A stretch of 64,000 nucleotides of DNA from sequence record QB031382.1, one strand, 5' to 3'. Shown here one piece after another: positions 47,907 through 61,482 of the stretch (positions are counted from its first letter, which is position 1; each line of letters opens with the position of its first letter). The notes below the pieces were generated by a model that saw only the letters and a program-made list of their open reading frames with translations, made no database searches and was not told the origin of the DNA. A program made the translations under genes and the position numbers. This DNA comes from a phage.

Positions 47907-48097
47907 GAAACAAGAAAGAGCTTTACTCTGGTGAGTGGATCAACGATCAACAGATCGGAGAGGTAACCTGCTTCCGATGTTTTACCAGGTACAATATTAA
48001 AACTGCACCAAAAAGTGTTCCAAAGACTGACGGTTATTACATAAAAGAACCTCATTGCCCAAAATGTAAATGCCGATTGTACTGGAGCAATCTGTAA
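47903..48097 (+). CDS. small zinc-ribbon protein
   Basis: ATG after RBS GGAGAGA, ATGA overlap; CFRCF ... CPKCKC. Confidence 0.4.
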   Translation: MRNKKELYSGEWINDQQIGEVTCFRCFTRYNIKTAPKSVPKTDGYYIKEPHCPKCKCRLYWSNL

Positions 48098-48101
48098 GAG
48101 G

Positions 48102-48129
48102 TTGACATCTGAAAACTGCAGTGTATAAT
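48102..48129 (+). promoter_or_regulatory. sigma70 consensus promoter
   Basis: -35 TTGACA, 16-bp spacer, -10 TATAAT. Confidence 0.5.
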
Positions 48130-48160
48130 ATACTCATAAACTAACAGAGAGCGATGTATT

Positions 48161-48352
48161 ATGGTAATTTTTAACCGGGATGGTATCATAGTTAGACAGC
48201 ACCCGTTCCTTGAATACTATCAAATTGAGCAATGGTGCTACGGGGATTGCAGTCACTCCTATGGGCAAAGTTGGGGATATCGCACAGTTTTTGAATCAAC
48301 AGACCTTGACAAAGTAAGACAGAAAGTTTTAGAACTTATTAACAACAAGTGA
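48161..48352 (+). CDS. hypothetical protein
   Basis: 63 aa. Confidence 0.4.
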   Translation: MVIFNRDGIIVRQHPFLEYYQIEQWCYGDCSHSYGQSWGYRTVFESTDLDKVRQKVLELINNK

Positions 48353-48359
48353 GTATGAT

Positions 48360-48692
48360 ATGGTAACATTAGAAAGACGTAAAGCTATTGCCGCTACACT
48401 GGCAGACATCTTTTGGGATTGTAATTTAAAAGATACCCGATATTGCGGCGCATCTGTAGATGTATTATTCCCACGGCCCACCATTGTTGCAATGGGCAGT
48501 CTACTGGGCGTAGTTGCAGGTGCATGGGATAAGGAAGGCGGTTTTTATATCTGGCAACCTGACTACGGTACCTGGAAAGAAGTAAGGGGTGCTGATGACT
48601 TTGGGCCTGCAGTTGCTAAGATGGATGGCTGGGAAATTTATGTTGGAAACGACATGAAGCTGAAAGGCGAGATTGTTTACTGGTTACCTTAA
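48360..48692 (+). CDS. hypothetical protein
   Basis: 110 aa. Confidence 0.4.
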   Translation: MVTLERRKAIAATLADIFWDCNLKDTRYCGASVDVLFPRPTIVAMGSLLGVVAGAWDKEGGFYIWQPDYGTWKEVRGADDFGPAVAKMDGWEIYVGNDMKLKGEIVYWLP

Positions 48693-48712
48693 GAAAGTGC
48701 AGGAGATAAAGT

Positions 48713-48958
48713 ATGAACAAAGGGTGGACATTCGTAGACGGCGTTGAAAACATGCCTCTCGGAAAGTATATCGTAGCCATGGCTGACAAGAATGGCAATG
48801 TAGATTTCGGAGCTTGCGAGGTTGTTCTTGCAGGATCTGGTGGCTATGTGCACAAAACTGGGGTAATTAATGGTCAGTTCTACTTTGATCACAACCCTGT
48901 TGTAGCGTATATGGCTATGCCAGAGTTCAAGCTACCAAAGGAAGGTGCTGATGTTTAA
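48713..48958 (+). CDS. hypothetical protein
   Basis: 81 aa, RBS AGGAGA. Confidence 0.4.
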   Translation: MNKGWTFVDGVENMPLGKYIVAMADKNGNVDFGACEVVLAGSGGYVHKTGVINGQFYFDHNPVVAYMAMPEFKLPKEGADV

Positions 48959-49184
48959 GCTTAAATCTGCATGGAACATTGCTGTAGGCGATGAGATCCG
49001 CATTCCGGGTGGGAAGACCGTTATGAAGATATCCCGTATTGAATACGAAGGTGACCGTGTATTCCATATTTTTGCAGAAGATGGTCGAGAAATTTATATA
49101 CAGGCGGGCTCACACATCTATATTCGTAAAGGGGATGACAAACGACAGAGATCATCATTTCAACTGCAGGGTATGTATTCCTGA
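48951..49184 (+). CDS. hypothetical protein
   Basis: ATG after RBS AAGGAAGG. Confidence 0.4.
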   Translation: MFKLKSAWNIAVGDEIRIPGGKTVMKISRIEYEGDRVFHIFAEDGREIYIQAGSHIYIRKGDDKRQRSSFQLQGMYS

Positions 49185-49784
49185 CAATCATTGCGCTGAT
49201 CATCTTGGTGGTGGTGTATGGATTTGTTATCCTGCCTATTCTTGAGACATTTAGTTTGTGTCGGTGTTGGAGAAAGGCTTACGGACCACAGCCGTGGAAA
49301 GACTGGCCTCATCTGTTACGCATAGCGTTCTCCTATGCCTATGATCACTCCAGCAGTGCATGCATAACTGGGTATCACGCCCACAACTGGAACTGGGAAG
49401 GGTTGGGGAGATGGAATGTTATAAAAACTATACCTCTACGCATGTACAAGCCTAAAAACAAAGATAGTTGATACTTGAAAATCCCTGGCACATCAAACAT
49501 AAGGAGGATTTCTAAAATGGATTTCCTCCTTTTGATATTTTACCTGGCCGGATATTTTAAAATTCTTAGAAAATCAGAAAATGGATCGAAAACTAAAATG
49601 GATTTTTTCAAGACAGGCACGATAAGCTGTGCTAATCATCCTATCGTTCGCACCGTACTTCAAATCACCGTTCCAGATTTTCCGCACACACTCTCACCCT
49701 TCTACCAGAACTTTCCCAACTTACCTTCGGCCTTTTATGACAATAAGTTAATTATTATCAGTAAGTTTTGATACATCTCTCTCA

Positions 49785-49975
49785 GTACTCGATCTGTTTT
49801 TCATTTCAAAGATTGGATTTTCTGAAAATTTTTCTCGATAAATTTTTCGGTACTCGATCTGTTTTTCGTTTTCTGAATCGGATTTTCTTGAAATTGGTCC
49901 AGCACCAGATCTAAAATTTTTGGGAACGAAAGCGATTTTTCGTTTTCAGAAATGGATTTTTAAAATTTCTATATG
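49785..49975. repeat. AT-rich tandem direct repeats (about 64 bp, two full copies plus a partial)
   Basis: GTACTCGATCTGTTTTTC(A/G)TTT... at 49785 and 49849, partial third copy near 49930. Confidence 0.5.
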
Positions 49976-50082
49976 GGAATATTTTATGAGGTATTATTTT
50001 ATATAGAATTGTCACGGTAGGTAATTAGCATGCTAACTAAATTTATGAAATGCGAAAAGTTCTCATTTAGAATTTTGAATGA

Positions 50083-50135
50083 TAATCATTCTCGTTTGCA
50101 GAATAACGGGCACCCCCGGTGATTGTCTCCCGGCC
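50083..50135 (+). repeat. GC-rich repeat element, copy A
   Basis: 50103-50131 ATAACGGGCACCCCCGGTGATTGTCTCCC is the exact reverse complement of 58211-58239. Confidence 0.6.
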
Positions 50136-50218
50136 CCTACTGCCCCGGCTTGCTATTATAGTATCACACAGGACAAAGAAAGCAAGGAGTTTTTGCATAA
50201 ATTTTTAGACGATAATGA

Positions 50219-50280
50219 TAATCGTTCTCATTTCATGCAGCGCCCATCCCCGGTGGTTGTCTCCCCCGTCACCGGTGCCT
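50219..50280 (+). repeat. GC-rich repeat element, copy C (direct, degenerate)
   Basis: GATAATCGTTCTC...CCCCGGTGGTTGTCTCCCCCGTCACCGGTGCC, about 85 percent identical to copy A and to the inverted copy B. Confidence 0.5.
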
Positions 50281-50640
50281 GCCGTCCTTTCGATATGTAT
50301 ATTGTGCCACCTGGCGGGGCCGCTGTCAACACTTTTCAAAAATTTTTTTCTAACCTGATGCACTAACCGCTGCAACCTGGCGGGGCCAGCCTGGCAGGAC
50401 CTAACTGACCAGGTGGGCCTATGCTATAGGATAGGTAACAATTGAAGAGGAGGTACAAAAAATGGAAGGTAATATGATCCCCTGGAAAATGTAGCTATTA
50501 ATGACGCTGAGGCTATCGCCCTGGTTGAAAAGGCTATGGCGGGAGCGTTGGAACATAAAGAAGAGTACGAAAAAATTATGGTTAACCTGGCAGGGTCGGC
50601 GGCTGAGGAATTTTGCCCAAAAAATAATTTTAACTAGTGG

Positions 50641-50669
50641 TTGACAGCTCGGACAGTTTTTGCTATTCT
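50641..50669 (+). promoter_or_regulatory. sigma70-like promoter
   Basis: -35 TTGACA, 17-bp spacer, -10 TATTCT. Confidence 0.45.
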
Positions 50670-50721
50670 TATCCTCGCAAGGTGAACAACACCACACTAA
50701 TTAACAGAGAGGATAAAAATC

Positions 50722-50919
50722 ATGAACGCCTACGGAATCAAAGTACGTCGCAACACTCGCCAGGTGGTCACCAATCAAGTGATTTGCCGGGCGGATGTAA
50801 CCATCAACAACGGGCAAGGCCTTTATAAATTTCGTCGCGGTCATAGTTATACCCTGCAACAGCTTAATCGTTGCGCCCTGACAAAAGGCCAGATCAACCA
50901 CTGGTTTAATAAAAAATAA
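50722..50919 (+). CDS. small hypothetical protein
   Basis: 65 aa, RBS GAGAGGA. Confidence 0.45.
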   Translation: MNAYGIKVRRNTRQVVTNQVICRADVTINNGQGLYKFRRGHSYTLQQLNRCALTKGQINHWFNKK

Positions 50920-50922
50920 GTA

Positions 50923-50951
50923 TTGACATATAGCCTGACACAAAATACACT
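50923..50951 (+). promoter_or_regulatory. sigma70-like promoter
   Basis: -35 TTGACA, 17-bp spacer, -10 TACACT. Confidence 0.45.
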
Positions 50952-50983
50952 AAAAGCACAAAAGACACTAAGAGGATAAAATC

Positions 50984-51382
50984 ATGAAAACCACTACCTT
51001 TAATTTTGACAATGCGGACTTTTCTTTTTCTGATGTCAAGAACTGCCGCCGTGATCGTGGATTTTATAAGGCTTATAATCTGGTGGGCCTGGACGATGAC
51101 AATAATTTGCACGAAGTAGCTGAGATCCGGTATTATGCCGCCGCCAGTGGGAACACTCACTACTGCGTTTTTTGGATACACGACAACAAGAACAATAAGT
51201 ACGGCTATACTGGCGGCAAGGCGAGCGGTCACGGTTATGATAAAGCTAACGCAGCACTTGAGAGCGCATTAAATGCTATGGGGATCACTGCCGACGGCTG
51301 GATCTACGAAGAAGAGTTTTTGTCGGCACTTGCTGACCGCCTGGGATATAAAAAGCACATTGTAACATGTGCCCACGAATAA
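50984..51382 (+). CDS. small hypothetical protein
   Basis: 132 aa, RBS AAGAGGA. Confidence 0.5.
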   Translation: MKTTTFNFDNADFSFSDVKNCRRDRGFYKAYNLVGLDDDNNLHEVAEIRYYAAASGNTHYCVFWIHDNKNNKYGYTGGKASGHGYDKANAALESALNAMGITADGWIYEEEFLSALADRLGYKKHIVTCAHE

Positions 51383-51393
51383 AAAAAAAATTA

Positions 51394-51421
51394 TTGACAC
51401 GCTGCAAAATTCAAGTAAACT
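51394..51421 (+). promoter_or_regulatory. sigma70-like promoter with 5' leader hairpin
   Basis: -35 TTGACA, 16-bp spacer, -10 TAAACT; leader hairpin GGCGGGAA-TGT-TTCCCGCC. Confidence 0.45.
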
Positions 51422-51469
51422 AGACACAAAAGGCGGGAATGTTTCCCGCCAACACAAAGGAAAAAGATC

Positions 51470-51874
51470 ATGAATAAGAACGTACGCCGCATCATGAACG
51501 AGTTGGCAAACGATGAAAAAATTATTGACATGCATTTGATCAACATTTGCCGCCGTTGTGTAACATATAACAACCGCGCCGCAAAAGCGCGTGAGATGAA
51601 CGCAAAAGGCACCTTAAAGCCATTCCAGGTGGTGGTAAAGGCCATTAAAAATGTAACTAATACGGCAAACCAGGTACAGGGGAACACCAACGAGAGTACC
51701 AATATTGATCCGGCTTACATCATGAAACGGATCCGGACCTGTAAGAACAAAGAGCAAGTGTATAATGTTATAGACTGGTTGGATTCTATGGGCGACGTGG
51801 TGTACAATAGATTCTCGGCAGCTATTGAGATCCAGCTTGACAGGTTGGACGGTAAAGTACTGAAAACTTATTAA
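51470..51874 (+). CDS. small hypothetical protein
   Basis: 134 aa. Confidence 0.5.
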   Translation: MNKNVRRIMNELANDEKIIDMHLINICRRCVTYNNRAAKAREMNAKGTLKPFQVVVKAIKNVTNTANQVQGNTNESTNIDPAYIMKRIRTCKNKEQVYNVIDWLDSMGDVVYNRFSAAIEIQLDRLDGKVLKTY

Positions 51875-51875
51875 G

Positions 51876-51921
51876 TTTATTTTTAGATGGCCTTGACTCC
51901 AGGGCCATCAATAAAGTAAAC
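51876..51921 (+). promoter_or_regulatory. conserved palindromic intergenic element, copy 1
   Basis: TTTATTTTTAGATGGCCTTGACTCCAGGGCCATCAATAAAGTAAAC; 7-bp stem GATGGCC/GGCCATC with TTGAC in loop; T-rich upstream, A-rich downstream. Confidence 0.4.
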
Positions 51922-51954
51922 TAGTCTCAACTAAGCGAAAAAGGGGGCTTTAAG

Positions 51955-52074
51955 ATGAGCACTACACGCCAATACACAAAGGTAACTATTATCGTTTGCG
52001 TTGTCGGTTACATCCTGGCGCAAATGTTAATGAGTAGCGCCAACAGTTTTGCAAAATTTTTCTTAAATTTTTAA
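51955..52074 (+). CDS. small hydrophobic peptide (39 aa, below ORF-track cutoff)
   Basis: ATG after RBS AAAGGGGG; sequence MSTTRQYTKVTIIVCVVGYILAQMLMSSANSFAKFFLNF. Confidence 0.3.
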   Translation: MSTTRQYTKVTIIVCVVGYILAQMLMSSANSFAKFFLNF

Positions 52075-52102
52075 TTGACAAGCTAACCCAAATCAGTATA
52101 CT
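52075..52102 (+). promoter_or_regulatory. sigma70-like promoter with leader hairpin
   Basis: -35 TTGACA, 16-bp spacer, -10 TATACT; hairpin GGGAA-AAC-TTCCC. Confidence 0.5.
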
Positions 52103-52153
52103 TAAACACGTAAACGGGAAAACTTCCCAGAACACACAAAAGGAGAAAACACC

Positions 52154-52495
52154 ATGACTACTATGACCGCCGCAGAAAAAGCTATGCAGATCGCCGCGCT
52201 GAAAAAACAGATCGCAGACCTTGAGAACAAGATCGATAACTTTGAAATCGACGAGGACAAGTACGACGAAAACTATAATGAATGGCTAGACGAGATCCAC
52301 GGCGAAATTATGATCGGTAACATTTCTTTTCTTCCGTCGCGTATCCTCAAGGAGTTAGATCCTATCGCTTACCGCTGCGGATTTAGCGACTACATCGACA
52401 GCCTGGGCATTGAGGACGACGAAGACTATCAAGAATTGCAGACAGAGTTGGAAGAAATGAAAGAGGAGCTTTCAAAGCTGGAAGAAAACGAGTAA
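52154..52495 (+). CDS. small acidic hypothetical protein
   Basis: 113 aa, RBS AAGGAGA. Confidence 0.5.
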   Translation: MTTMTAAEKAMQIAALKKQIADLENKIDNFEIDEDKYDENYNEWLDEIHGEIMIGNISFLPSRILKELDPIAYRCGFSDYIDSLGIEDDEDYQELQTELEEMKEELSKLEENE

Positions 52496-52497
52496 AA

Positions 52498-52543
52498 TTT
52501 ATTTTTAGATGGCCTTGACCCCAGGGCCATCAATAAAGTAAAC
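52498..52543 (+). promoter_or_regulatory. conserved palindromic intergenic element, copy 2
   Basis: TTTATTTTTAGATGGCCTTGACCCCAGGGCCATCAATAAAGTAAAC. Confidence 0.4.
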
Positions 52544-52581
52544 TTTACACTGTTACACTGAACTAATGAGGAGTTAAAACT

Positions 52582-52827
52582 ATGGCAGCACTAATCACAA
52601 AATATTATGCGCCCACCAACACCAAAAGCGCCCGTATCATGGTAAAAGGTTTCGGACGTAAAAAGGTCTACACCTGGGACTATTCCCTAGATATGGAAGA
52701 CAATTATACCAACGTAATGACTGATTTTATTAATGATCTGAATAAACAGATCCTAACCGACTACAAAGTGACCGATATTGTTTACATAGGTGAAGGCGGG
52801 ATCTGTTTTGTAGGCATTGTGAAATAG
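52582..52827 (+). CDS. small hypothetical protein
   Basis: 81 aa, RBS GAGGAG. Confidence 0.45.
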   Translation: MAALITKYYAPTNTKSARIMVKGFGRKKVYTWDYSLDMEDNYTNVMTDFINDLNKQILTDYKVTDIVYIGEGGICFVGIVK

Positions 52828-52875
52828 TTATTTTTTCGGTGGTCCTGGTTGCAGGGGCCATCTATAAAGATAATT
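52828..52875 (+). promoter_or_regulatory. conserved palindromic intergenic element, variant copy
   Basis: TTTTTTCGGTGGTCCTGGTTGCAGGGGCCATCTATAAAGATAAT; shares GGGCCATC(A/T)ATAAAG core. Confidence 0.3.
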
Positions 52876-52903
52876 TATTAACACCATGAAAGGAGAAAGT
52901 AAC

Positions 52904-53257
52904 ATGATCAGCGGGGCCAGTTTTATTATCGGCGCTATTGCTACGGCTTTAATTGTAAACAAGATCCAGGATAAAAAGGAAAGAGGAAGTACCGCCCTTG
53001 CAGAATATCCATTTTGGACATTCAACGATAACGAAGATTATATTATAAAGTATAAAAATAAAGAAGGCGACCAAGTAACACCGCGACCGATCCCGGCTTA
53101 CAAAATGCAGGAAACACTATACCGCCTTGAGGCGGGCGGCGCAAAAATTGTTGACTTTTGGGGATACGACCACACAGATCAGGAAGTTATAAAGCGCCGT
53201 ATCCGGGCTATTCAGGCCAATATTGAGGTTAGCAAGAGGGGAATATATGAAAATTAA
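52904..53257 (+). CDS. small membrane-anchored hypothetical protein
   Basis: ATG after RBS AAAGGAGAAAG; N-terminal hydrophobic helix ISGASFIIGAIATALIV. Confidence 0.45.
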   Translation: MISGASFIIGAIATALIVNKIQDKKERGSTALAEYPFWTFNDNEDYIIKYKNKEGDQVTPRPIPAYKMQETLYRLEAGGAKIVDFWGYDHTDQEVIKRRIRAIQANIEVSKRGIYEN

Positions 53258-53444
53258 TTTCGAGAAAATTGTAAAGCGCCCTCATGATTCCGAAGAGTTG
53301 CCAGAACGCCGCCAGCGCAACAATAAGCTGAATAAGCCAAAAAGGTTTGGGAAGATCTGGCGTAATCATTATGATCGTAAATTGCCCGGCCTACTTTTGG
53401 AACGTGAACGACAGGCAGAACGCTACCGCCATAAAGACAAATAA
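53247..53444 (+). CDS. small basic hypothetical protein
   Basis: ATG after RBS AAGAGGGG; 65 aa. Confidence 0.35.
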   Translation: MKINFEKIVKRPHDSEELPERRQRNNKLNKPKRFGKIWRNHYDRKLPGLLLERERQAERYRHKDK

Positions 53445-53452
53445 CAACCAAC

Positions 53453-53480
53453 GCCCCGCCATTGTGCGGGGCTTTTTATT
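53453..53480 (+). terminator. rho-independent terminator
   Basis: Stem GCCCCGC ... GCGGGGC followed by TTTTTATTTC. Confidence 0.6.
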
Positions 53481-53601
53481 TCTATCCTACGAATAGCGCC
53501 CCTGGTTGGCCCTGTAAGCGCCAAAAAGGCCCCCACCTATGCAATCGCCCCTTTAACCTGAAAACATCGCCCAGGGCCGTCCTATGGCGTTAAAAATATC
53601 A

Positions 53602-53629
53602 TTGACATCGTCAACAGGTTAGCTATACT
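53602..53629 (+). promoter_or_regulatory. sigma70-like promoter
   Basis: -35 TTGACA, 16-bp spacer, -10 TATACT. Confidence 0.5.
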
Positions 53630-53661
53630 AACCACATCAAAGAGAGAAAGGAGTAAACGCC

Positions 53662-53922
53662 ATGCGTAAATTAAAAAATTTTGATAAAGTTGATGTTATC
53701 CTGAATAATTTTTACTACTGCAACAATAAAGCTATCTGGTGGCGGGATAGTTCCACCGATAAAGTCAAAGCGCGCTTTCTTCAAGGGCACTGGCAAGGCC
53801 GCCCAGTGATTAAAATCATGGGGCAATTGGTAGCGTTTAAAAATTGCCGCCGCGTTGATGACGTTGAGGAGATTTTAAACATTTTGCGCCACAATAATTT
53901 AAAAAATAGTGTTGACAAGTAG
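53662..53922 (+). CDS. small hypothetical protein
   Basis: 86 aa, RBS AAAGGAG. Confidence 0.45.
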   Translation: MRKLKNFDKVDVILNNFYYCNNKAIWWRDSSTDKVKARFLQGHWQGRPVIKIMGQLVAFKNCRRVDDVEEILNILRHNNLKNSVDK

Positions 53923-53939
53923 ATCTCAATAAGTATAAT
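53912..53939 (+). promoter_or_regulatory. sigma70 consensus promoter with leader hairpin
   Basis: -35 TTGACA inside end of upstream ORF, 16-bp spacer, -10 TATAAT; hairpin GGCGGGAA-AAC-TTCCCGCC. Confidence 0.55.
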
Positions 53940-53996
53940 TAAACACACAGGCGGGAAAACTTCCCGCCACTAACAAAGAAAACAGGAGAAAATATC

Positions 53997-54620
53997 ATGA
54001 CCACCGTTAACATTACCACAGGTTACAATTTATCTTTCGACGTGCTGACCGACGAACAAAAAGAAAAAGCCATTGAAATGGTCCGCGAAAGAGAAGAACG
54101 TAGCGGGGACGATTTTTTCGCAGAAAATGTAATTGAATACTATAAAGAACAAGTTTTTCCAGAGTACGGCCTTGAGGATACCGAAGTACATTGGTCCGGC
54201 TTTTGGTGTCAAGGCGATGGCGCATCGATCAGTGCTGAAAATGTAGACTTAGAAAAATTCTTGCGTAAAGTCAAGGCCCTGACCAAGTTCAGATCAATTC
54301 GTCACTTGTTCGGCACAATGCACGATGGCGAACTATCCGCCAGTGTTGAACGCGACAAGTACAGCCATTACAGCCATGAAAACACTATAAGCGGGTACAT
54401 TGATACCACTTGGATAGATCTGACCGCCAAACAAGAAAACAAAGTGGAAGACCTGGAAGAATTGATCACCGAGACGGTACGGGAGCTATCCCGCAAGGTT
54501 TACGTAGACCTTGAGGAGGCCTATCTAGAACAGTTCACCGCAGAAAACCTGATCGGCCTTATTCAGGCCAATGATTGGCGGTTTGATGTCGATGAATATG
54601 GTGAGATGACTTTTTCATAA
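53997..54620 (+). CDS. hypothetical acidic protein
   Basis: 207 aa, RBS CAGGAGAAAA. Confidence 0.5.
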   Translation: MTTVNITTGYNLSFDVLTDEQKEKAIEMVREREERSGDDFFAENVIEYYKEQVFPEYGLEDTEVHWSGFWCQGDGASISAENVDLEKFLRKVKALTKFRSIRHLFGTMHDGELSASVERDKYSHYSHENTISGYIDTTWIDLTAKQENKVEDLEELITETVRELSRKVYVDLEEAYLEQFTAENLIGLIQANDWRFDVDEYGEMTFS

Positions 54621-54628
54621 ATAAAGTG

Positions 54629-54656
54629 TTGCAATAACCTAAAAACCTGCTATATT
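54629..54656 (+). promoter_or_regulatory. sigma70-like promoter with leader hairpin
   Basis: -35 TTGCAA, 16-bp spacer, -10 TATATT; hairpin GGGCAA-GACAT-TTGCCC. Confidence 0.45.
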
Positions 54657-54713
54657 AAAACTCAAGGGGGGCAAGACATTTGCCCGCCAACACAAAACAA
54701 AGAGGATAACATC

Positions 54714-55094
54714 ATGAAAAATACTACTAAGGCTATTGACACCGTTATGTTTAACCTGGTTACACTCCGTGAAGATATGAAAGATCTTCCGCGTGAAACA
54801 GTGTGCGACCATATCGAAAACTATCGCAAACTAATCAAAGAGTTGCCATTAAAACGAGATCAGTACGCGGCTAACGCTATGCTAAACGCCATGATCAAAA
54901 AGATGATCCAGTGTGATCTAACCCTGGCCTATGATTATGCAGGCGGTCGTTTTGCAGTATACAATCAGCCCGTGCCTGGTATGAGCACCACCGAAGAATT
55001 GCACGCGCTCAATCTAAAACAGGACGTGTGGGATAGTATGCCTCGCGTGGTGGTATGGGTAGAAAGCGGGAAGATTTACGGCGATAATTTTTAA
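54714..55094 (+). CDS. small hypothetical protein
   Basis: 126 aa, RBS AAGAGGA. Confidence 0.5.
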   Translation: MKNTTKAIDTVMFNLVTLREDMKDLPRETVCDHIENYRKLIKELPLKRDQYAANAMLNAMIKKMIQCDLTLAYDYAGGRFAVYNQPVPGMSTTEELHALNLKQDVWDSMPRVVVWVESGKIYGDNF

Positions 55095-55103
55095 TCAGGT
55101 AGC

Positions 55104-55131
55104 AGGCGGCATAATTGCCGCCTTATTGTTG
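55104..55131 (+). terminator. rho-independent terminator
   Basis: Stem AGGCGGCA-TAAT-TGCCGCCT then TATTGTTG. Confidence 0.45.
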
Positions 55132-55158
55132 ATCAGAACTGCAAAAGGGGTACATAGA

Positions 55159-55530
55159 ATGGAATTTATTATTTTGGCCGTATTGGTTGCCTTATTTAAC
55201 GCCTGGATCGCTGGCAAGATGGGAAGATCCGCCTTTTTATGGTTTATTATATCTATTTTCCTGGGGGTGGTTGCAACTATTGTACTGGTTATCCTTGCAA
55301 TTGTTGACAAGGGGAATAATAGAAAGGGTAAAGTATTTTCAGACCTGTACGACGCTCAAACGTTTGTCAACGCCTATTACAGCGATCTTCCAGTCTCCCT
55401 ACGTTGCAGCCTTGCACAACAGGTTTTTGATGAGGCTAAAACCAGAGATCACGCCCATGAGATTTGTTTAACTGAGGCGGATCGCTTATTTGAGAGGAAT
55501 AGAAAATATGTGGGCCAGCCGTTTAAATAA
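55159..55530 (+). CDS. small membrane protein
   Basis: ATG after RBS AAAGGGG; two hydrophobic helices. Confidence 0.45.
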   Translation: MEFIILAVLVALFNAWIAGKMGRSAFLWFIISIFLGVVATIVLVILAIVDKGNNRKGKVFSDLYDAQTFVNAYYSDLPVSLRCSLAQQVFDEAKTRDHAHEICLTEADRLFERNRKYVGQPFK

Positions 55531-55729
55531 TACCACGTTAATTAATCCATTTAGTGAAGATTTGAGGCCAGCCGCCTGGCGGAATGGATTCAATAACGAA
55601 AAATTTACTTTTAGGCCTGATCTTGAGGAATTTTATAACAATGGATCGAACAACGACAGAAATAATTTTTCTCGTAATGTGCGTGGCGATAATACTCCTG
55701 GGGGCCATTGTAAACCACGTCACTGCTAA
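55508..55729 (+). CDS. small hypothetical protein
   Basis: ATG after RBS GAGGAA, overlaps upstream gene end; Asn-rich. Confidence 0.3.
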   Translation: MWASRLNNTTLINPFSEDLRPAAWRNGFNNEKFTFRPDLEEFYNNGSNNDRNNFSRNVRGDNTPGGHCKPRHC

Positions 55730-55749
55730 CAGGAGGAAAGGGGGAGACG

Positions 55750-55869
55750 ATGACAACCAAGGATAAGCCCAGCACCGACAAGGCGCGCCGCGTTATGGTA
55801 TGGCTTGAGATTATCGCCCTTGAAATATTGTTAGGCGTAGGGATGTATTTTATCGCCGTACGTACCTGA
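55750..55869 (+). CDS. small hydrophobic peptide (39 aa, below ORF-track cutoff)
   Basis: ATG after strong RBS AGGAGGAAAGGGGGAG; C-terminal hydrophobic helix; terminator follows. Confidence 0.3.
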   Translation: MTTKDKPSTDKARRVMVWLEIIALEILLGVGMYFIAVRT

Positions 55870-55873
55870 TAAC

Positions 55874-55905
55874 GGCCCCCGATCCCTGGGGGCCTGACTT
55901 TTTTC
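55874..55905 (+). terminator. rho-independent terminator
   Basis: Stem GGCCCCC-GATCCCT-GGGGGCC then TGACTTTTTTC. Confidence 0.6.
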
Positions 55906-55933
55906 AAAAAAAAAAATTTTTTCTTCCGGGGTG

Positions 55934-55961
55934 TTGCAATCCGGTCCGGAATATGGATAAT
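55934..55961 (+). promoter_or_regulatory. sigma70-like promoter with leader hairpin
   Basis: -35 TTGCAA, 16-bp spacer, -10 GATAAT; hairpin GGGGAG-ACA-CTCCCC. Confidence 0.45.
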
Positions 55962-56020
55962 AACAATCAACGGGGAGACACTCCCCACCACACAGACAAA
56001 GTTCCAAAAGGAGAAACAAA

Positions 56021-56221
56021 ATGAGCAACAATATCCGCGTTATTAACTTCAAAAAAGAAGAAAAAATAGCTGTGCTGGTTGATGGTCAAGAAATATTCAA
56101 GGGGTATTACGAAGATCATCAGGCGGCGATCAGTATTACCCGCGTAATTGGTTACCATAATTTTTACCCTCAAGGCGCTGAGGCAGCAGTAAAACGAATT
56201 AAGGAGATTGTAGGCCTGTAA
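56021..56221 (+). CDS. small hypothetical protein
   Basis: 66 aa, RBS AAGGAGAAA. Confidence 0.5.
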   Translation: MSNNIRVINFKKEEKIAVLVDGQEIFKGYYEDHQAAISITRVIGYHNFYPQGAEAAVKRIKEIVGL

Positions 56222-56223
56222 AA

Positions 56224-56270
56224 TTTATTTTTAGATGGCCTTGACCCCAGGGCCATCAAATAAAGTAAAT
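56224..56270 (+). promoter_or_regulatory. conserved palindromic intergenic element, copy 3
   Basis: TTTATTTTTAGATGGCCTTGACCCCAGGGCCATCAAATAAAGTAAAT. Confidence 0.4.
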
Positions 56271-56313
56271 TTAAAACCTGTTAAAATAATCAGTGCAAAA
56301 AGGAGAAATGATC

Positions 56314-56613
56314 ATGTTTATACCCGCCAATGATCTTTATTTCTTTGATGGTCAGATCGTAGACGGCGTGGAAGTTGAGATCGCTGGATGTAAAGGCGGC
56401 CAGGTAATGATCTTCCGCAATAGTGCCTTTAACGATCATTTTATTACAATGACTGTGGAAGTTAAAAAGCTGGATGATAAGAAAACACTCATTGACTATT
56501 CCGTGAAAGATCATCCAGACTACCACATGATCTATGGTGATTTGTGCATTGTTGACCGTGACAAGGTGGGCGGCATTGTGATCGCTATTGTGAACGATGT
56601 TTTCTCTGAATAA
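56314..56613 (+). CDS. small hypothetical protein
   Basis: ATG after RBS AAAGGAGAAA. Confidence 0.45.
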   Translation: MFIPANDLYFFDGQIVDGVEVEIAGCKGGQVMIFRNSAFNDHFITMTVEVKKLDDKKTLIDYSVKDHPDYHMIYGDLCIVDRDKVGGIVIAIVNDVFSE

Positions 56614-56672
56614 TTCCGGCAAATGATGCAAAATAAGGCCCATGGCAGGGCCTGCAGCGATATAATCACACA

Positions 56673-56704
56673 AAGGCTATGCAGTTGCATGGCCTTTTTA
56701 TTTT
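56673..56704 (+). terminator. rho-independent terminator
   Basis: Imperfect stem GGCTATGCA...TGCATGGCC then TTTTTATTTT. Confidence 0.45.
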
Positions 56705-56751
56705 AGCGCTACAGCGGCCCCCAAGGCGTTTAAAAAATTTTTAAAAAGTAC

Positions 56752-56779
56752 TTGCATCAAGTCCGACAATATGGATAAT
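56752..56779 (+). promoter_or_regulatory. sigma70-like promoter
   Basis: -35 TTGCAT, 16-bp spacer, -10 GATAAT; G/C hairpin in leader. Confidence 0.4.
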
Positions 56780-56838
56780 AGGACTTATCAGGGGGGGGCG
56801 GCCCCCAATCATTAACCGGATAGATGGGAGTTAAAATC

Positions 56839-57123
56839 ATGGCTATTGTTACCGTGGGCGATGTAGTAGAAATGGAAGCAAAATACTTAAAAGCGGGTAT
56901 GCATATCCTACGCAACGATCTTGAACTAGTCCTGACAATGGTCGACTATAATCCCGGTCAGGATTATCCAAGCATCGACTACTTTTTCCAGTATGTTGAC
57001 GAAGAATTAAAAGAAGATGACGCTTATCGTGGTGAATTTTGCAATTTCTTTTGCCCTGATGAGGTTGTAAAAGTTATCTATCAACCTGGCGTACCTTTCC
57101 CGTTGCACGCCATCAATAAATAA
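56839..57123 (+). CDS. small hypothetical protein
   Basis: Second ATG chosen (RBS GGGAG); 94 aa. Confidence 0.45.
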   Translation: MAIVTVGDVVEMEAKYLKAGMHILRNDLELVLTMVDYNPGQDYPSIDYFFQYVDEELKEDDAYRGEFCNFFCPDEVVKVIYQPGVPFPLHAINK

Positions 57124-58195
57124 GCCTGGCGGGGCCGAAAAAGGCCCCTCCTGAAACTATGAAAAAATAAAGATAGGTGAATCATCATGATGGAACAAAT
57201 TAAACGCGCTGAGGCTATTAATGGCAATGATGCCGCCAACATGACAGAATGAAAAACATCATTTACAGATTGACAAAACGCAACATCATGATCGCCACCG
57301 TGATCGCTTGCCTTTTCGCTTTCGTGAGTAACGCAACGTTTAACGCCGTGGGCCGGGTGGTGTTTAATGCTGGCAGTGTTTCAACAGCTAACACAATAAT
57401 CGATTGTTTGCAACTTTTCTTTTATGTTGCCTTTCGTTTAAAAATAGCTTGCAAGGTAGACCGTTTTGATTTACCTTTTATTTGTGGCGGCGTGATCGCT
57501 ATCGTATGCTAACAGAGGATCAGAAGAAAAGTGTACGACATAGGGCGGGGCAATAAGGCAACGCCCATTAATGAGGGTGGAATCATGTTAGAAAAAATTT
57601 TCACGGTTGTAGTAGTTGGCATGGCATTATCGGTTGGAGTGGTTGCAACTATGGCTAACATGATCCTATCTTCCCACGGTATCGGGTAAGGTGAAACAAA
57701 TGATCACGAACAAAACAGGAAAAACGGAATTTTTACGCGGCTTGCAAATAGGTAAGCCTGAGATCTGGTATTGCACTAAAACACCACGTGACGAAATGAA
57801 AGATTTTACCGCCACGCTGAAGCGGGTAAAGATATCTATCACGCAGAAAAAGCCTTGATAGTGGTGGAAGGTGAGATCCCTCAAGCCGTTGTTATAGTTG
57901 AGCGTACAGCATAGTTTAATCTATACCGTACGCCCCATTAACTAACAAAGCATAAGCAGGCGGCGGTGACCGCCTTGAACGCAACAGAAAGAGAATAGAA
58001 AAGCATGAGAAAGGTAATTATCACCATAGGGATCGTGGCGGCAATGTTGGCGATCTTTCCCTTTATGGTTAGGTATGTGCTGATCAGTATTGTCCTGATA
58101 GTCAGTGGTCTATTGGAAACGGTTGGCAACTGGTTTTAAGATAATAAACAGGGCTTGCAATGGTCCTGTTTTTTGTTATACTTATCTCACGGGTG

Positions 58196-58239
58196 GCACC
58201 TGGCGACGGGGGGAGACAATCACCGGGGGTGCCCGTTAT
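58196..58239 (-). repeat. GC-rich repeat element, copy B (inverted)
   Basis: Reverse complement of 58211-58239 equals 50103-50131 exactly; lies just upstream of promoter at 58259. Confidence 0.6.
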
Positions 58240-58258
58240 ATAAAAACTATAAAAACAG

Positions 58259-58287
58259 TTGACATCTGCCAGGTGGTTAGGTAACAT
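58259..58287 (+). promoter_or_regulatory. sigma70-like promoter with leader hairpin
   Basis: -35 TTGACA, 17-bp spacer, -10 TAACAT; hairpin GGGCA-AAAG-TGCCC. Confidence 0.45.
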
Positions 58288-58341
58288 TTATCTTGAAGGG
58301 GCAAAAGTGCCCACACAACAACCAGAAGAGAGGAAAACATT

Positions 58342-58614
58342 ATGTCAAGCTGGATTAATCAAAAAGTTGAATCACGTTTTAATGCTATCTGGGATCTCAT
58401 CGAAAAAGAGGACGGAACATCAAGCCCTTACCTCAATAATCTTGAATTCCATTTTGTGGAAGCGATGAACGCAGAACATGATCACAAAGGTGGCGCGGAT
58501 GAGTTCGCTCAAGGGTATGGCTTCAACAATGCCAACGAAATGATTGAAGCGGTTGTACTTCAGGCTGAGGAAGATTATCAATTAAAAACACTTGAATTTT
58601 GCCGCCGTAAGTAA
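58342..58614 (+). CDS. small hypothetical protein
   Basis: 90 aa, RBS AGAGAGGAAAA. Confidence 0.45.
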   Translation: MSSWINQKVESRFNAIWDLIEKEDGTSSPYLNNLEFHFVEAMNAEHDHKGGADEFAQGYGFNNANEMIEAVVLQAEEDYQLKTLEFCRRK

Positions 58615-58675
58615 TAAGATAATGACACGGGCCAAAAGGCCCACCAAACCAGAACCCCATAAAGAGGAAAACATC

Positions 58676-58939
58676 ATGAAACGCCTTGATCAGCTCAAAC
58701 TAGTTCAGTACATGGCCTACAAAGTTATTGAAGTCCAAAAAGGTAGTAAAAAGGAGGTTTGCGAGAAAGCGTATAAGATCTTTACTCGTAAAAAAGATGA
58801 TTGGATGTTACGCCAGACCAAAAAGGCTGATATCCTGGGGTACCTGGAAGAAGAGATCCGGCTTGAAGAGCAAGAAGAGATCCGCCGCAGTGAGGCAGAT
58901 TATCAGGCAGCTTGGGAAAGCTGGATGAGAAACAAATAA
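58676..58939 (+). CDS. small hypothetical protein (Lys/Glu-rich)
   Basis: ATG after RBS AAGAGGAAAA; leader hairpin GGGCC-AAAA-GGCCC. Confidence 0.45.
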   Translation: MKRLDQLKLVQYMAYKVIEVQKGSKKEVCEKAYKIFTRKKDDWMLRQTKKADILGYLEEEIRLEEQEEIRRSEADYQAAWESWMRNK

Positions 58940-58951
58940 TAAACATTATCA

Positions 58952-58978
58952 AGGGGCTTAGGCCCCTTTCTTTTTGTT
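58952..58978 (+). terminator. rho-independent terminator closing the rightward small-gene block
   Basis: Stem AGGGGC-TTAG-GCCCCT followed by TTCTTTTTGTTTG. Confidence 0.65.
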
Positions 58979-59583
58979 TGCTCTTTTCCTACCATAAACG
59001 GCCCTACCTGGCAAGTGGAATAATTGACGAGCCATTAATCCCGCACACTGTACAAATATACATATAAAATAACTATTGCATAATCTTTCATCTTGTGGTA
59101 GCAGGGTCATTTTTACACGTTTTTCCTTCCAAAAATGCACGTAATGCAGCTATTGCACAAAATTTAACCTGATGCACATTTTCAGCATACTGTCAACAAT
59201 TAAAAACCCTTATAAATCATACACTTACACAAACCAAAAAGCGTGTCCTACGTGAAAAATCGGGTGTAACTATAGCCGACAGATCTCAGAATCCACGTAC
59301 GATCACCATTCTATAGCCTGCTAAGTATTTATTCCAACCACAGAATAACGGAATAGTCAATACCTGTACAAAATAATTATTCGTATAAACTGCATAACAT
59401 AAATTTTCTCATGTGTAAACATTTTTCGTAAACAGTCCGAAATTGTCACGATAGGTTACTATAATCAGAGAAATCTTTAGTCGTCTAATGTTTACTGCAC
59501 ATAACTATACTGACTGGAATCATTAGATGACTAAGAGAAAGATAAGAAATAGTTAACAATGTAATTGTTTTACCTGTAACAAT

Positions 59584-59760
59584 AAGGCAACTATGCAAAC
59601 GAATGTCATGGCGCGACGGAGTCGCGACATAATATAAAAGCAGTAACCATCACCCCCGTGATAGTTTATCTGCAAACTATTGATCAGATCATAGTTGCCT
59701 TAGATTTAGTTAATCATGACATAATAAGCAAGGCAACTATAGATCTGATAATAGTTGCCC
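59584..59760. repeat. cluster of four AGGCAACTAT motifs in alternating orientation
   Basis: AAGGCAACTAT at 59584(+), 59691(-), 59730(+), 59751(-); last pair forms 10-bp inverted repeat with 10-bp spacer; 19-bp direct repeat ATGCAAACGAATGTCATGG at 59595 and 59852. Confidence 0.55.
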
Positions 59761-59790
59761 TGCTTTTATATTATGTCATATATTATTAAC

Positions 59791-59850
59791 CTGTTAATTG
59801 TCAGCTTATTGGCTGTTAGCTTGTCAATTGTTAACTTGTTAATTGTTATC
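59791..59850. repeat. four tandem about 15-bp repeats (TTGTYAATTGTYARC)
   Basis: tgttaattgtcagc / ttattggctgttagc / ttgtcaattgttaac / ttgttaattgttatc. Confidence 0.5.
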
Positions 59851-59878
59851 ATGCAAACGAATGTCATGGCTTATCATC

Positions 59879-59986
59879 TTTGTGTAAACTGTCAGGGTGT
59901 AGACTATTCAAGGTGTAAATTATTCAGATGCAAACTATCCAGGCGTAAACAGTCTATGCGGGAACAATCTGCACGTGAACAATGAA
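59879..59986. repeat. six to seven degenerate tandem about 16-bp repeats (iteron-like)
   Basis: gtgtaaactgtcagg / gtgtagactattcaag / gtgtaaattattcaga / tgcaaactatccaggc / gtaaacagtctatgcg / ggaacaatctgcacgt. Confidence 0.5.
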
Positions 59987-61482
59987 ACATGAAATAATAA
60001 CAGTCGTTATTGTATCGAAAGTGTATAAGGTGTCAGATTATGGCATATTGTGTGACATTGTGTCAGACAAGTTTTTCTCCTCTTTGTCAAGTGCTGCATG
60101 TAAAATTTACAAACTGGTATGGTAGCATTTTTGCGGCCCTGTTTACATTCAGGAGTGTATGTATAACCCTTGTTGTGTGGGCGTTTAGACGTCTGGACGG
60201 TCAGAAGTCTGCAGGTTAATATCTAATCTATTGGTCGCTAACTATATCCCCACAAATAATAAGAAATGCAATTGTTATATGCGTAAACAGTAACTCATGT
60301 TATCAATCCCTGTATGTATCGCCAGTGGTGCGCATAATGGGTATTATGTTAAATTGCCCGTAATGATAACGATTCTCACAATGATAGGTATTCTCATTCA
60401 CCCGCCCAGGATAGGTTGCAAATGTTGTGCCACTGTGTGAACGGCCTCGCCTATTAATTTGCCTCACTGCCCCGATATTTGAGAATTATTATAAGAATGA
60501 GAAGTATTCCCATTTCGTCCGCCTGGCAGCACTCCTGTAGGACAAGCACAAAATCGTGGCATAACTGTACCTGTTCAGATATTTCTGGCTGACTCTTCAG
60601 GTCTGTGTGGGAAAAGCCAACCTCTCCGGCGGCGGGGAGTGGGTCAATTAAAAAATTTACGTGGTGTATGAAGCGCTCTTCAGGTAAGGCAGGTATTATG
60701 GGATGAATCACTCTTCAGGTGATGATATTTGTAGGTGTGATATTTGCTGGAAAGCCAGATATGACGGGACTCCCGGCGGGGCAGGGGTAGTACAGACAGG
60801 GAAAATGTGGAGAATGTGGTGGGTAAATTGATCAAGCAGGTAGAGTATGGAATATGTTACAGGTATGTTAAATATGGAGGTAAGATATTTGTAAGATTTG
60901 TGTGTAAAATCAAAGACTTAAGTAGTGTTGTGGTATTTTCTATAAATAATTCAAGTTTAATAGGGAATATTTGCCTCTATCCACTTTGTATGGTAACTAT
61001 ATTCTAATTGAATTGGTTTACAAGTGTATATAAAGTATACAAATTAAAGATACAAGAAACCCCCCTCCCCCTTCGGCTACCATTCACCTTTTCCTCTGAC
61101 TGGTACTTAAACACTTATTCAGACTCTTCAGGTTATCACTCATATATCATATGGCAGTGACTGGTGTCCTCCGGCCCCTCTTTCGTCACCCGTCCGCTTC
61201 GCCATGCTAATGCCATAGCTAACTGTTCGGTTGTTCACCCTGTTCACTCAGGTGTATCTCCATACCCCTTCAAACCGAAGAGAACAGAAAACCCGAATTA
61301 CTCGGTAAAAGAAAAGAGAAGAACTTAATTTTATCAGGATAGGCAAGAATGTCAAGGCATGACTGCTCACTAAACAAGCAAACAGTCATGTGTGGGAGGT
61401 AAGTGATTGTGGTGGTAGGAAATTTAGTTGAAAGATGTGTTATAGGTGCTTCCAGCACTTTAGCCTGGCAGCTAATTGTGTG

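Follow-up and report, generated by a model that had tools for sequence, protein, structure and literature searches.

The 64,000-nucleotide stretch analysed here (one strand of the phage sequence record QB031382.1, in the following called the window) belongs to a Vequintavirus, i.e. an rV5/FV3-like coliphage, and carries at positions 50640–58940 an array of about 24 small open reading frames (ORFs) on the + strand with products of 34–207 amino acids. A similarity search with the interval matched 245 phage records; over its full length it is 96–97% identical to the corresponding regions of VB-EcoM-WM and FV3 and 90–95% identical to those of many other Vequintavirus (rV5-like) genomes; close relatives have 19–26 annotated coding sequences in it, and in FV3 every one of them is annotated as 'hypothetical'. 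The initial annotation, made from the sequence alone, had described a cassette of about 20 small genes, which agrees with the ORFs found, together with near-consensus sigma70 promoters, 5' G+C hairpins and CA-rich leaders, and had read it as an early host-takeover region with engineered mRNA stability and translation. The promoter quoted there (53912), the three hairpins (53950, 55972 and 58299) and the leaders are all present at these positions. Chance does not account for the promoters, the hairpins behind them or the CA-rich leaders; they keep to one strand, are retained in orthologs and recur in other lineages of phages. Absent from that description were a repeat-type promoter class (D1), true terminators that divide the array into units, and a match to the PeSL cassettes of T4-type phages with cassette-wise gain and loss of genes.

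For the promoter scan, sequences of the form TTGACA-N16-18-TATAAT were scored by the number of matches out of 12, with 200 dinucleotide shuffles as control. Within 50640–58940, nine sites with at least 10/12 matches were found on the + strand and none on the - strand, compared with 1.5 ± 1.2 (maximum 7) in the shuffles; at a threshold of at least 9/12, the numbers were 23 on the + strand and 8 on the - strand, compared with 9.3 ± 3.1. Eleven intergenic + strand sites reach at least 9/12 and seven of these at least 10/12, which bears out the earlier count of 'ten or more' close promoters. The 25 nt upstream of the promoters contain 75% A+T versus 57% for the region, and the stop codon of the upstream gene is located 3–15 nt before the -35 box or overlaps the promoter. 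Altogether, three classes of promoter and two of hairpin occur in the array, namely eight hairpin units (one of them, P58592, with a weak promoter), three to four repeat-type promoters and three plain promoters. Part of the genes lack a promoter or hairpin of their own, and several of the promoter-less genes lie within short operons. Five of the sigma70 promoters in the array (P195A, P192, P186, P168 and P164) are already marked in the GenBank record of rV5, and the rV5 genome paper lists 33 consensus-like promoters genome-wide; 5' hairpins and leaders are not mentioned there.

The hairpin units share one layout, in which an A/T-rich tract is followed by the promoter, a gap of 9–13 nt, a hairpin with a stem of 5–9 bp and a loop of 3–5 nt, a leader of 19–34 nt, a Shine-Dalgarno (SD) sequence and the ATG; the 5' arm of the stem is G-rich and the 3' arm C-rich. 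All of them lie on the + strand. In detail, the unit 51394–51469 comprises the promoter TTGACA-16-TAAACT (51394–51421), a 10-nt gap, the hairpin GGCGGGAA-tgt-TTCCCGCC (51432–51450) and the leader 51451–51469 before the ATG at 51470. The unit 52075–52153 is built from TTGACA-16-TATACT (52075–52102), a 13-nt gap, GGGAA-aac-TTCCC (52116–52128) and the leader 52129–52153 (ATG 52154). Upstream of the gene for the 207-amino-acid protein (ATG 53997), the unit 53912–53996 has a 12/12 promoter, TTGACA-16-TATAAT (53912–53939), a 10-nt gap, the hairpin GGCGGGAA-aac-TTCCCGCC (53950–53968) and the leader 53969–53996. In the unit 54629–54713 the TG-extended promoter TTGCAA-16-TATATT (54629–54656) is separated by 9 nt from the hairpin 54666–54688, with the leader at 54689–54713 and the ATG at 54714. 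The unit 55934–56020, directly 3' of a terminator, consists of TTGCAA-16-GATAAT (55934–55961), a 10-nt gap, GGGGAG-aca-CTCCCC (55972–55986) and the leader 55987–56020 (ATG 56021). In the unit 56751–56838 a weak -35 box with GATAAT (56751–56779) precedes an 11-nt gap, a G8/C5 hairpin (56791–56806) and the least CA-rich leader of the set (56807–56838; ATG 56839). The last two units are 58259–58341, with TTGACA-17-TAACAT (58259–58287), an 11-nt gap, GGGCA-aaag-TGCCC (58299–58312) and the leader 58313–58341 (ATG 58342), and 58592–58675, with the weak promoter match TTGAAT-17-TAAGAT, GGGCC-aaaa-GGCCC (58629–58642) and the leader 58643–58675 (ATG 58676). One further unit is found on the + strand outside the array at 32837–32894, where TTGACT-17-TAAGAT is followed after 11 nt by GGGGAGG-cact-CCTCCCC and an A/C-rich leader.

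The spacing between promoter and hairpin was evaluated for the + strand of the whole window, with 43 perfect G+C hairpins and 100 promoter-like sites as input. Seven hairpins start 9–12 nt after a -10 box, where 0.27 are expected (P ~1e-8); of these seven, one is a terminator (58951) that stands behind a weak promoter match due to chance, and another is the outlying unit at 32837. In all nine units of the window the G count of the 5' arm is at least equal to its C count, the difference being zero only at 58629. In a pan-set of 12 Vequintavirus loci and the phi92-like phage TH18, the stem begins 9–12 nt after the -10 box in every genuine unit; a few further units, overlooked by the scan, have wider gaps, namely 13 nt in P52075 and 14 nt in one TH18 unit. 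A pyrimidine-purine step is the preferred context of transcription initiation, and when about 20 distinct gap sequences from different phages were inspected by eye, nearly all of them had such a step (Y7-R8) at positions 7–8 after the -10 box. The transcription start site (TSS) is thus expected at this step, 2–5 nt ahead of the stem, which would leave about 2–4, mostly 3, unpaired nucleotides 5' of the stem. On the basis of the -10-to-stem spacing and the conserved Y7-R8, the whole hairpin is predicted to lie within the transcript, with the stem starting at about +2 to +6.

The leader between the hairpin and the SD block contains 85% A+C versus 53% for the region (p = 3e-13), with only 7% T and 7% G. 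The frequency of ACA in the leaders is 0.093 compared with 0.022 regionally, of which mononucleotide composition alone predicts 0.064. An example is AACACAAAACAAAGAGGATAACATC-ATG, and the SD sequences are strong ones of the AGGAG/GAGG type. Folding of the untranslated regions (UTRs), as had been proposed in the initial annotation, predicts that the 5' hairpin forms and that the ribosome-binding site (RBS) is open (P unpaired 0.63–0.93). In enterobacteria, ACA motifs located 5' of the SD have been proven to enhance translation; they are described for yifK, dppA and gltI, with lowered translation upon mutation of the motif demonstrated for yifK and dppA only (PMC3879156). The leaders of the array resemble these enhancers in having several ACA motifs within a C/A-rich stretch directly upstream of the SD; they differ in that their activity is putative and that part of the ACA excess stems from mononucleotide composition. 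By analogy, the open ACA-rich leader probably enhances translation. A switch in which the C-rich 3' arm sequesters the SD was considered and rejected, as only a minority of the arms are anti-SD-like and the RBS is predicted to be open.

To follow the units through evolution, 13 unit families were aligned over 11 relatives, comprising nine GenBank records and two IMG/VR loci. Per column, pairs of sequences differ on average by 0.018 in the -35 box, 0.061 in the -10 box and 0.037 and 0.077 in the two stem arms; loops, spacers and leaders reach 0.136, 0.116 and 0.126, respectively. The stems are hence 2–3 times less variable than loops and spacers, which shows them to be under purifying selection, whereas the loops drift. 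Loops vary among units and orthologs (tgt, aca and atgtc; aca, gaca and gctaa), and pair-preserving variants of the stems exist, i.e. GGGGCAAG/TTTGCCCC, GGGGGCAAG/TTTGCCCCC, GGGGCGAG/CTTGCCCC and GGCGG..CCGCC versus GGTGG..CCACC. Between units, the stem sequences have wholly diverged whereas pairing, polarity and distance from the -10 box are retained, and this comparison between units is a stronger argument for the stems than the covariation among orthologs.

The second hairpin class is formed by D1, a 61-nt repeat in which a 10-bp hairpin, GATGGCCTTG-accc-CAGGGCCATC, encloses the -35 box TTGAC and is followed by TAAACT. Three intact copies and one degenerate copy are present, the intact ones all within the array and all four on the + strand. 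Copy 1 (51862–51922; hairpin 51886–51909 around the -35 box TTGACT; -10 box TAAACT) precedes a gene at 51955 for a 39-amino-acid product with a transmembrane (TM) segment, copy 2 (52484–52544; hairpin 52508–52531 around TTGACC; -10 box TAAACT) the gene at 52582, copy 3 (56210–56270; hairpin 56234–56257 around TTGACC) the gene at 56314 and the degenerate copy (52828–52880) the gene at 52904. The plain promoters, also on the + strand, have no hairpin. They are the TG-extended P50641 (50641–50669, TTGACA-17-TATTCT), which is the first of the array and serves the gene 50722–50919 with a UTR of 45 nt, P50923 (50923–50951, TTGACA-17-TACACT), with an A-rich UTR of about 26 nt before the gene 50984–51382, and P53602 (53602–53629, TTGACA-16-TATACT), with a UTR of about 26 nt.

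Genuine intrinsic terminators of the + strand are located at 53453–53472 (GCCCCGC-cattgt-GCGGGGC followed by TTTTTATTT), where the 52904/53247 operon ends, at 55874–55894 (a strong one, GGCCCCC...GGGGGCC followed by a T-run), where the membrane-protein operon 55159–55869 ends, at 56672–56697 (an 11-bp stem followed by TTATTTT) and at 58146–58171, after the gene 58005–58139. A weaker terminator-like hairpin on the same strand (55104–55123, AGGCGGCA-taat-TGCCGCCT followed by TATTGTTGAT) comes after the gene 54714–55094, and a bidirectional-looking terminator at 58951–58968 closes the array, with about 2 kb devoid of ORFs beyond it. Of the 10 nt past the stem, 6–8 are T in five of the array's seven terminator-like hairpins and 3 in the weakest, 57128, versus 0–1 for the post-promoter hairpins (3 in one case); in addition, the terminator stems show mixed arm polarity, unlike the G-first post-promoter hairpins. 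The two clearly form separate classes. An identity of the post-promoter hairpins with + strand intrinsic terminators was rejected for lack of a T-run, and one with terminators of antisense transcription was rejected since a - strand T-run occurs only at 51432–51450. In the EdH4 record (L017, 1062–1080) the hairpin upstream of the ortholog of gene 51470 is labelled as a putative transcriptional terminator; this label is probably wrong, since a 10/12 promoter precedes the hairpin and no T-run follows it.

Homology break-points between the window and the 11 relatives recur at few positions. In one relative (L005) the genes 51955 and 52154 are missing, with the crossover within two D1 copies. YP-6 lacks 53915–54618, i.e. 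the stretch from one -35 box through the gene for the 207-amino-acid protein to the next, and the junction is formed by the -35 boxes of P53912 and P54629. An extra promoter-plus-gene cassette is inserted at the -35 box of P53602 in S127 and L006, with a TTGACAT direct repeat on both sides, and rV5, L005 and Mangalyan have an extra gene in the CAYAAAGAGGAAAACATCATG SD block (58652–58670) before the gene 58676. The window itself lacks 504 nt that make up two cassettes in FV3 and YP-6; they were lost when a crossover took place on GGCAATG within a post-promoter hairpin. The resulting scar (57187–57252, + strand) consists of a truncated 21-codon ORF that is fused on GGCAATG to the 3' half of the hairpin (57223–57236) and overlaps the start of gene 57249 (ATGA), so that this gene was left without its own promoter in this phage. 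As the junctions of these insertions and deletions fall in the D1 repeat, in -35 boxes, in the SD block and in a hairpin, the array is a hyperplastic region in which the regulatory blocks are the recombination joints.

The layout is also found in other phages. In TH18 a subset of promoters shows it, including that of the ortholog of the 207-amino-acid gene, where TTGACA-17-TACTAT is followed after 11 nt by GGCG...CGCC and then accaaccaacc. In the unrelated jumbo phage 121Q (L003, NC_025447 133954–144532), 5 of the 18 small-array genes examined have a hairpin unit, in which a conserved gttttaCAtca stands ahead of the G-first hairpin; TTGCAA-16-TATAAT is followed after 11–14 nt by GCGGGAA-nnn-TTCCCGC or GGGGAGAA-atga-TTCTCCCC, and the GCGGGAA/TTCCCGC stems are nearly identical to unit stems of rV5-like phages. 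A co-transfer of the regulatory module with the 207-amino-acid gene into 121Q was rejected, as the homolog in 121Q has a 12/12 promoter and no hairpin.

Among known systems, the closest counterparts are the PeSLs of the T4-type phages RB49/phi1, PST and nt-1 (Arbiol 2010, PMC2839356; Comeau 2014, PMC4122927), small cassettes that combine a strong sigma70-like early promoter and the A/T-rich tract upstream of it with a polyG/polyC stem-loop, followed by SD and ATG. In hyperplastic regions they accompany ORFans, and modules are shuffled through them (PMC2839356, PMC4122927). A further PeSL feature is the formation of excised mini-circles during infection, which is followed by inverse PCR on infected cells (PMC2839356). 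The array shares with them the near-consensus sigma70 promoters in intergenic space, the A/T-rich tract with the upstream stop codon, the G-first hairpins adjoining the promoter (eight after the -10 box and three D1 hairpins around the -35 box), the SD and ATG of a small ORFan at the 3' end and the clustering in a hyperplastic region, as well as the insertions and deletions between close relatives with crossovers inside the motifs. The annotation of rV5 also notes a similarity to RB49 proteins for some ORFs located within the array or next to it. Five subclasses of stem-loop position are known for PeSLs, including overlap with the -35 box and a position downstream of the -10 box. When our detector was applied to ORF185–233 of RB49, the hairpin was located in the -35/-10 spacer in eight cases, overlapped the -10 box in six and started 9 nt past the -10 box in one (ORF207), the latter having the same geometry as the units of the window; the leaders of RB49 are A/C-rich as well. 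The differences are that the lineage here is Vequintavirinae (and the Asteriusvirus 121Q) instead of Straboviridae, and that the stem-loop is mostly transcribed (+2 to +6) or situated around the -35 box (D1), whereas in RB49 it mostly lies in or overlaps the promoter. In TH18 (L002), two promoter copies upstream of 9414 and 13667 have a hairpin ATGCCGTG...CACGGCAT overlapping the -10 box (TAGAAT), which is a further PeSL positional class within Vequintavirinae. No paper linking PeSLs with rV5 was found in the literature searched. Judged by all PeSL features that can be examined in a sequence, the array represents a new lineage of these known cassettes.

With rather more confidence than doubt, we therefore regard the interval as a hyperplastic accessory-gene array of Vequintavirus that is built from PeSL-type early-expression cassettes, the regulatory blocks of which double as recombination homology. 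The most likely function of the cassettes is an autonomous and strong early expression of their genes. The sequences themselves show the architecture, its non-random nature and conservation, and the cassette-wise insertions and deletions with junctions in the regulatory blocks; early timing, translation enhancement and mRNA stabilisation are what we infer. Early expression by the host RNA polymerase is a reasonable assumption because the promoters are of the sigma70 consensus type, and one product is a homolog of a T7 early protein (gp1.1, see below). In this model, the sigma70 RNA polymerase of the host would fire the promoter of each cassette upon DNA entry, with the consensus promoters and UP-like tracts contributing. 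The G/U-poor, ACA-rich leader would not be able to pair with itself and, together with the strong SD, would allow high translation initiation. The 5'-proximal hairpin might limit 5'-end-dependent decay by RppH and RNase E and/or insulate the leader from upstream sequence, and the shared regulatory blocks would serve as homology patches through which promoter-plus-gene modules are deleted, inserted and exchanged. Strong, autonomous early expression, as proposed in the initial annotation, is thus a sound deduction, and its 'engineered stability' is plausible though not proven; 'host takeover' amounts to a guess, the products being without known function.

A protective role of the hairpin is attractive because rV5 gp11 is a probable Srd homolog (rV5 genome paper) and Srd of T4 stimulates the action of RNase E on the mRNA of the host, whereas that of the phage is stabilised. 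Stabilising 5'-terminal stem-loops are known from ompA, papA and the T7 gene 10 leader (work of the Belasco laboratory, listed among the references in PMC3997798), and the hairpins of the array are similar to these in being short, sequence-independent and G+C-rich, and in their predicted place near the 5' end of a presumably highly expressed message, ahead of an open RBS. The difference is that protection of the ompA type needs fewer than about two unpaired 5' nucleotides, compared with the 2–4 deduced here, so that membership in this group hinges on where the TSS really lies. Self-contained promoter-plus-small-gene units in a variable region are also typical of lambdoid 'morons' and of the pre-early or early accessory arrays of T5 and T4. 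The mobility of morons is however independent of shared flanking motifs (PMC2839356), whereas here the shared motifs are the junctions. With intrinsic terminators the hairpins have the G+C-rich stem-loop in common, and one of them is annotated as such in EdH4; they differ by the missing U-tract and by their location downstream of a promoter. Three further candidates were rejected: antitermination hairpins of the lambda nut/boxB type, as neither the length nor the sequence of the loop is constant from unit to unit or among orthologs, hairpin promoters of the N4 type, as the hairpins lie downstream of normal sigma70 promoters, and RNase III sites, for which stems of 5–9 bp are too short.

Several observations speak against parts of the model. 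RppH and RNase E need at least two unpaired 5' nucleotides and prefer at least three (PMC8833179), and RNase E is able to scan past simple or orthogonal stem-loops (PMC9943677); with an overhang of 2–4 nt and such a bypass, protection by the hairpin may be weak or partial. The hairpins of RB49 and D1 lie within the promoter and thus outside their own transcript, so that a role common to all classes may not concern the 5' end of the mRNA at all, and three good promoters of the array manage without a hairpin. Covariation among orthologs is thin, with few double changes, and a comparison of G.U with A.C events as a sign of a strand-specific structure at the RNA level is not decisive (nine versus five); in the most variable ortholog set RNAalifold predicts the stem in 9/9 sequences with one clean double change, and a few orthologs have broken pairs owing to C-to-A changes in the stem. 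As a search of IMG/VR with the 207-amino-acid protein gave only two close loci, the covariation rests on the 11 relatives. In addition, units are partially homologous to each other (repeats D4, D10 and D11), and the constant spacing could partly result from their common descent. Finally, nothing usable on TSS, RNA-seq or expression was found for Vequintavirinae in the literature searched, so that early timing and the exact 5' end are deduced indirectly. The hairpin probably stabilises or insulates the mRNA, its role as a stabiliser being uncertain.

Other explanations of the hairpins have to be weighed against this. One is a role independent of decay, either in transcription, where a purine-rich initial transcribed sequence and the rapid folding of the hairpin behind it would ease escape from very tight consensus promoters or prevent backtracking, or in the insulation of the open leader in read-through RNA. 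Such a role would fit the constant distance of the hairpin from the TSS and its 5' arm, which is invariably G/purine-rich. The overhang of 2–4 nt is poor for classical 5'-end protection, and with few terminators between the cassettes, read-through from upstream promoters reaches the genes. Studies on the T5 promoters N25 and N25anti reportedly found that the initial transcribed sequence strongly affects escape. The plain promoters are nevertheless equally strong without a hairpin, and hairpins of the D1 and RB49 classes cannot act in this way on their own transcripts, which leaves this explanation unlikely, if worth keeping in mind. We consider it distinctly unlikely that the hairpins are attenuators or terminators that dampen read-through from upstream cassettes. 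This role has been proposed for the stem-loops of RB49/phi1 PeSLs, the stem-loop of PeSL211/210 cut lacZ expression about as much as rrnB T1 did (PMC2839356), and it would be in line with the EdH4 label for 51432–51450, with the resemblance of G-first G+C stems to terminator stems and with the D1 and RB49 classes lying outside their own transcripts. The post-promoter hairpins, however, lack the U-tract, with 0–1 T in the next 10 nt against 6–8 in most real terminators of the array, and they stand between any promoter that could serve the gene of their cassette and the gene itself, where termination would silence it. Three of them directly follow genuine terminators, the hairpin being kept at 3/4 promoters in this situation, and attenuation is hard to square with consensus promoters, strong SDs and enhancer-like leaders.

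An action of the inverted repeats as DNA, either as operators for a repressor of phage or host origin that shuts off the early promoters or as cruciform or protein-bound recombination hot spots, appears improbable. Perfect palindromes at +3 to +22 would be well sited to block RNA polymerase, stems of the GCGGGAA/TTCCCGC type recur in rV5-like phages, TH18, 121Q and RB49, one deletion junction lies within a hairpin, and the PeSL authors speculated on a recombination protein that binds GGGG...CCCC. Yet the stems differ widely between units (GGGCA, GGGGAG, GGGCC, GGCGGGAA) and the 3–5 nt loops change among orthologs, which points to selection on structure rather than on a protein recognition sequence; nor would a symmetric duplex site be expected to show constant G-first polarity and tolerated G.T positions, and most mapped junctions fall in -35, D1 or SD blocks outside the hairpins. 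The partial homology of the units, the hairpin-free promoters and the broken pairs in a few orthologs could also mean that the hairpins are functionless today and mere passengers of duplicated promoter modules, e.g. relics of terminators. This would be very surprising given that the stems vary 2–3 times less than loops and spacers, that pairing and spacing are kept between units whose stem sequences are fully diverged, that the design recurs in distant phage lineages and that the spacing has a chance probability of only ~1e-8.

Beyond the model of PeSL-type cassettes, the G-first hairpin at '+3' and the ACA-rich leader might together constitute an early-mRNA signature of coliphages across families, with a job beyond generic stability and a geometry that is functional and not inherited; we regard this as speculative and hardly likely. 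Its range, as it appears from the sequences compared, would include rV5-like, phi92-like and 121Q-like jumbo phages and occasionally RB49. Such a module could mark phage messages for survival when an Srd-like protein boosts the RNase E of the host, or else some factor of the host or the phage could recognise it and favour the translation of these messages. In any case, the PeSL concept of portable blocks that drive early ORFan expression and provide homology for shuffling extends to Vequintavirinae and apparently to Asteriusvirus. The array is the main variable gene pool of rV5-like phages, which have found wide use against E. coli O157 and in collections such as BASEL, and its content can change by simple homologous deletion or insertion. 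The compact units of promoter, hairpin, CA leader and SD (about 90 nt) represent ready-made parts for strong expression in E. coli, and a tractable system for the function of a hairpin located 2–4 nt from the 5' end.

With regard to the gene products, 8 of the 24 have a TM-like hydrophobic stretch, in agreement with the earlier statement that several are membrane-associated, and all 20 products tested fall into PHROG families of unknown function. The statement that none is recognisable has to be revised in one case: the 65-amino-acid product of 53247–53441 (+ strand) is assigned to the family of bacteriophage T7 protein 1.1 (Pfam PF08200) with E 2.6e-11 and a score that exceeds the gathering threshold, gp1.1 being a T7 early-gene family, and this is the sole Pfam assignment of the array. 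The 207-amino-acid protein (53997–54620, + strand) is a member of PHROG 5162, and counterparts of its gene lie at 7992–8615 in L002 (TH18) and 5001–5612 in L003 (121Q). Homologs with 57–59% identity are present in phi92-like phages and in jumbo coliphages of the 121Q, PBECO4 group, and more distant ones in jumbo phages of Klebsiella, Salmonella, Serratia, Erwinia, Xanthomonas and Caulobacter and in a Bacillus phage. Its distribution suggests a widely travelled accessory gene to which no function is assigned.

Some of the public 'terminator' and 'DNA translocase' annotations are probably wrong. In the WM, nimi, S127 and SophiaRose records, the 87-amino-acid product of 58676–58939 (+ strand) is designated 'DNA translocase (FtsK)'. 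A Pfam search with it gave no match and it is placed in PHROG 11701, a family of unknown function, and for these reasons the FtsK label looks like a propagated mis-annotation. The WM labels 'portal vertex protein' for a 99-amino-acid ORF and '30S ribosomal protein S2' for a 65-amino-acid ORF look doubtful as well.

In the best-annotated relative, replication genes (helicase, primase/helicase, DNA polymerase, endonuclease VII) precede the array. No tRNA was found in a scan of the window, and a scan of 48000–61000 with the Rfam covariance models gave no match at E <= 1. A G+C-rich element occurs in three copies, at 50095–50160 (- strand), 50222–50292 (- strand) and 58186–58245 (+ strand), i.e. 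as a pair immediately to the left of the array and as an inverted copy inside the array before its last two genes. Its invariant core is GGGAGACAA[T/C]CACCGGGG[G/A]TG, that of the third copy being GGGAGACAATCACCGGGGGTGCC, and 50103–50131 and 58211–58239 form a 29-nt exact inverted repeat. The second and third copies are preceded by promoter-like sites of their own, which is TTGCAA-16-TATACT (58155–58182) for the third. The core is confined to Vequintavirus loci; the element has no Rfam match, and its RNA folds only weakly better than shuffles (z -2.0, +0.3 and -2.2). It could be an element of a leader or a small RNA, or else a site at which a protein binds or recombination takes place, and whether it is part of the cassette system is uncertain.

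The array is flanked by ORF-free regions of about 1.3 kb on the left (about 49.2–50.5 kb) and about 2 kb on the right (about 58.95–61 kb), past which the genes lie on the opposite strand. The A/T-rich, ORF-free stretches 49475–50100 and 58970–61200 on its two sides contain short direct repeats, i.e. units of 47–49 nt at 49775–49960, an exact 20-nt repeat at 59593/59851 and ATTRTTAACYTGTTAATTGT at 59782/59827. The GenBank records of EdH4, bov10K2, ECP2303, YN3 and C12 start 1.3–2.2 kb past the last gene of the array, so that the ends of these deposited genomes fall within the right-hand stretch, which may hold a terminus, a pac site or an origin.

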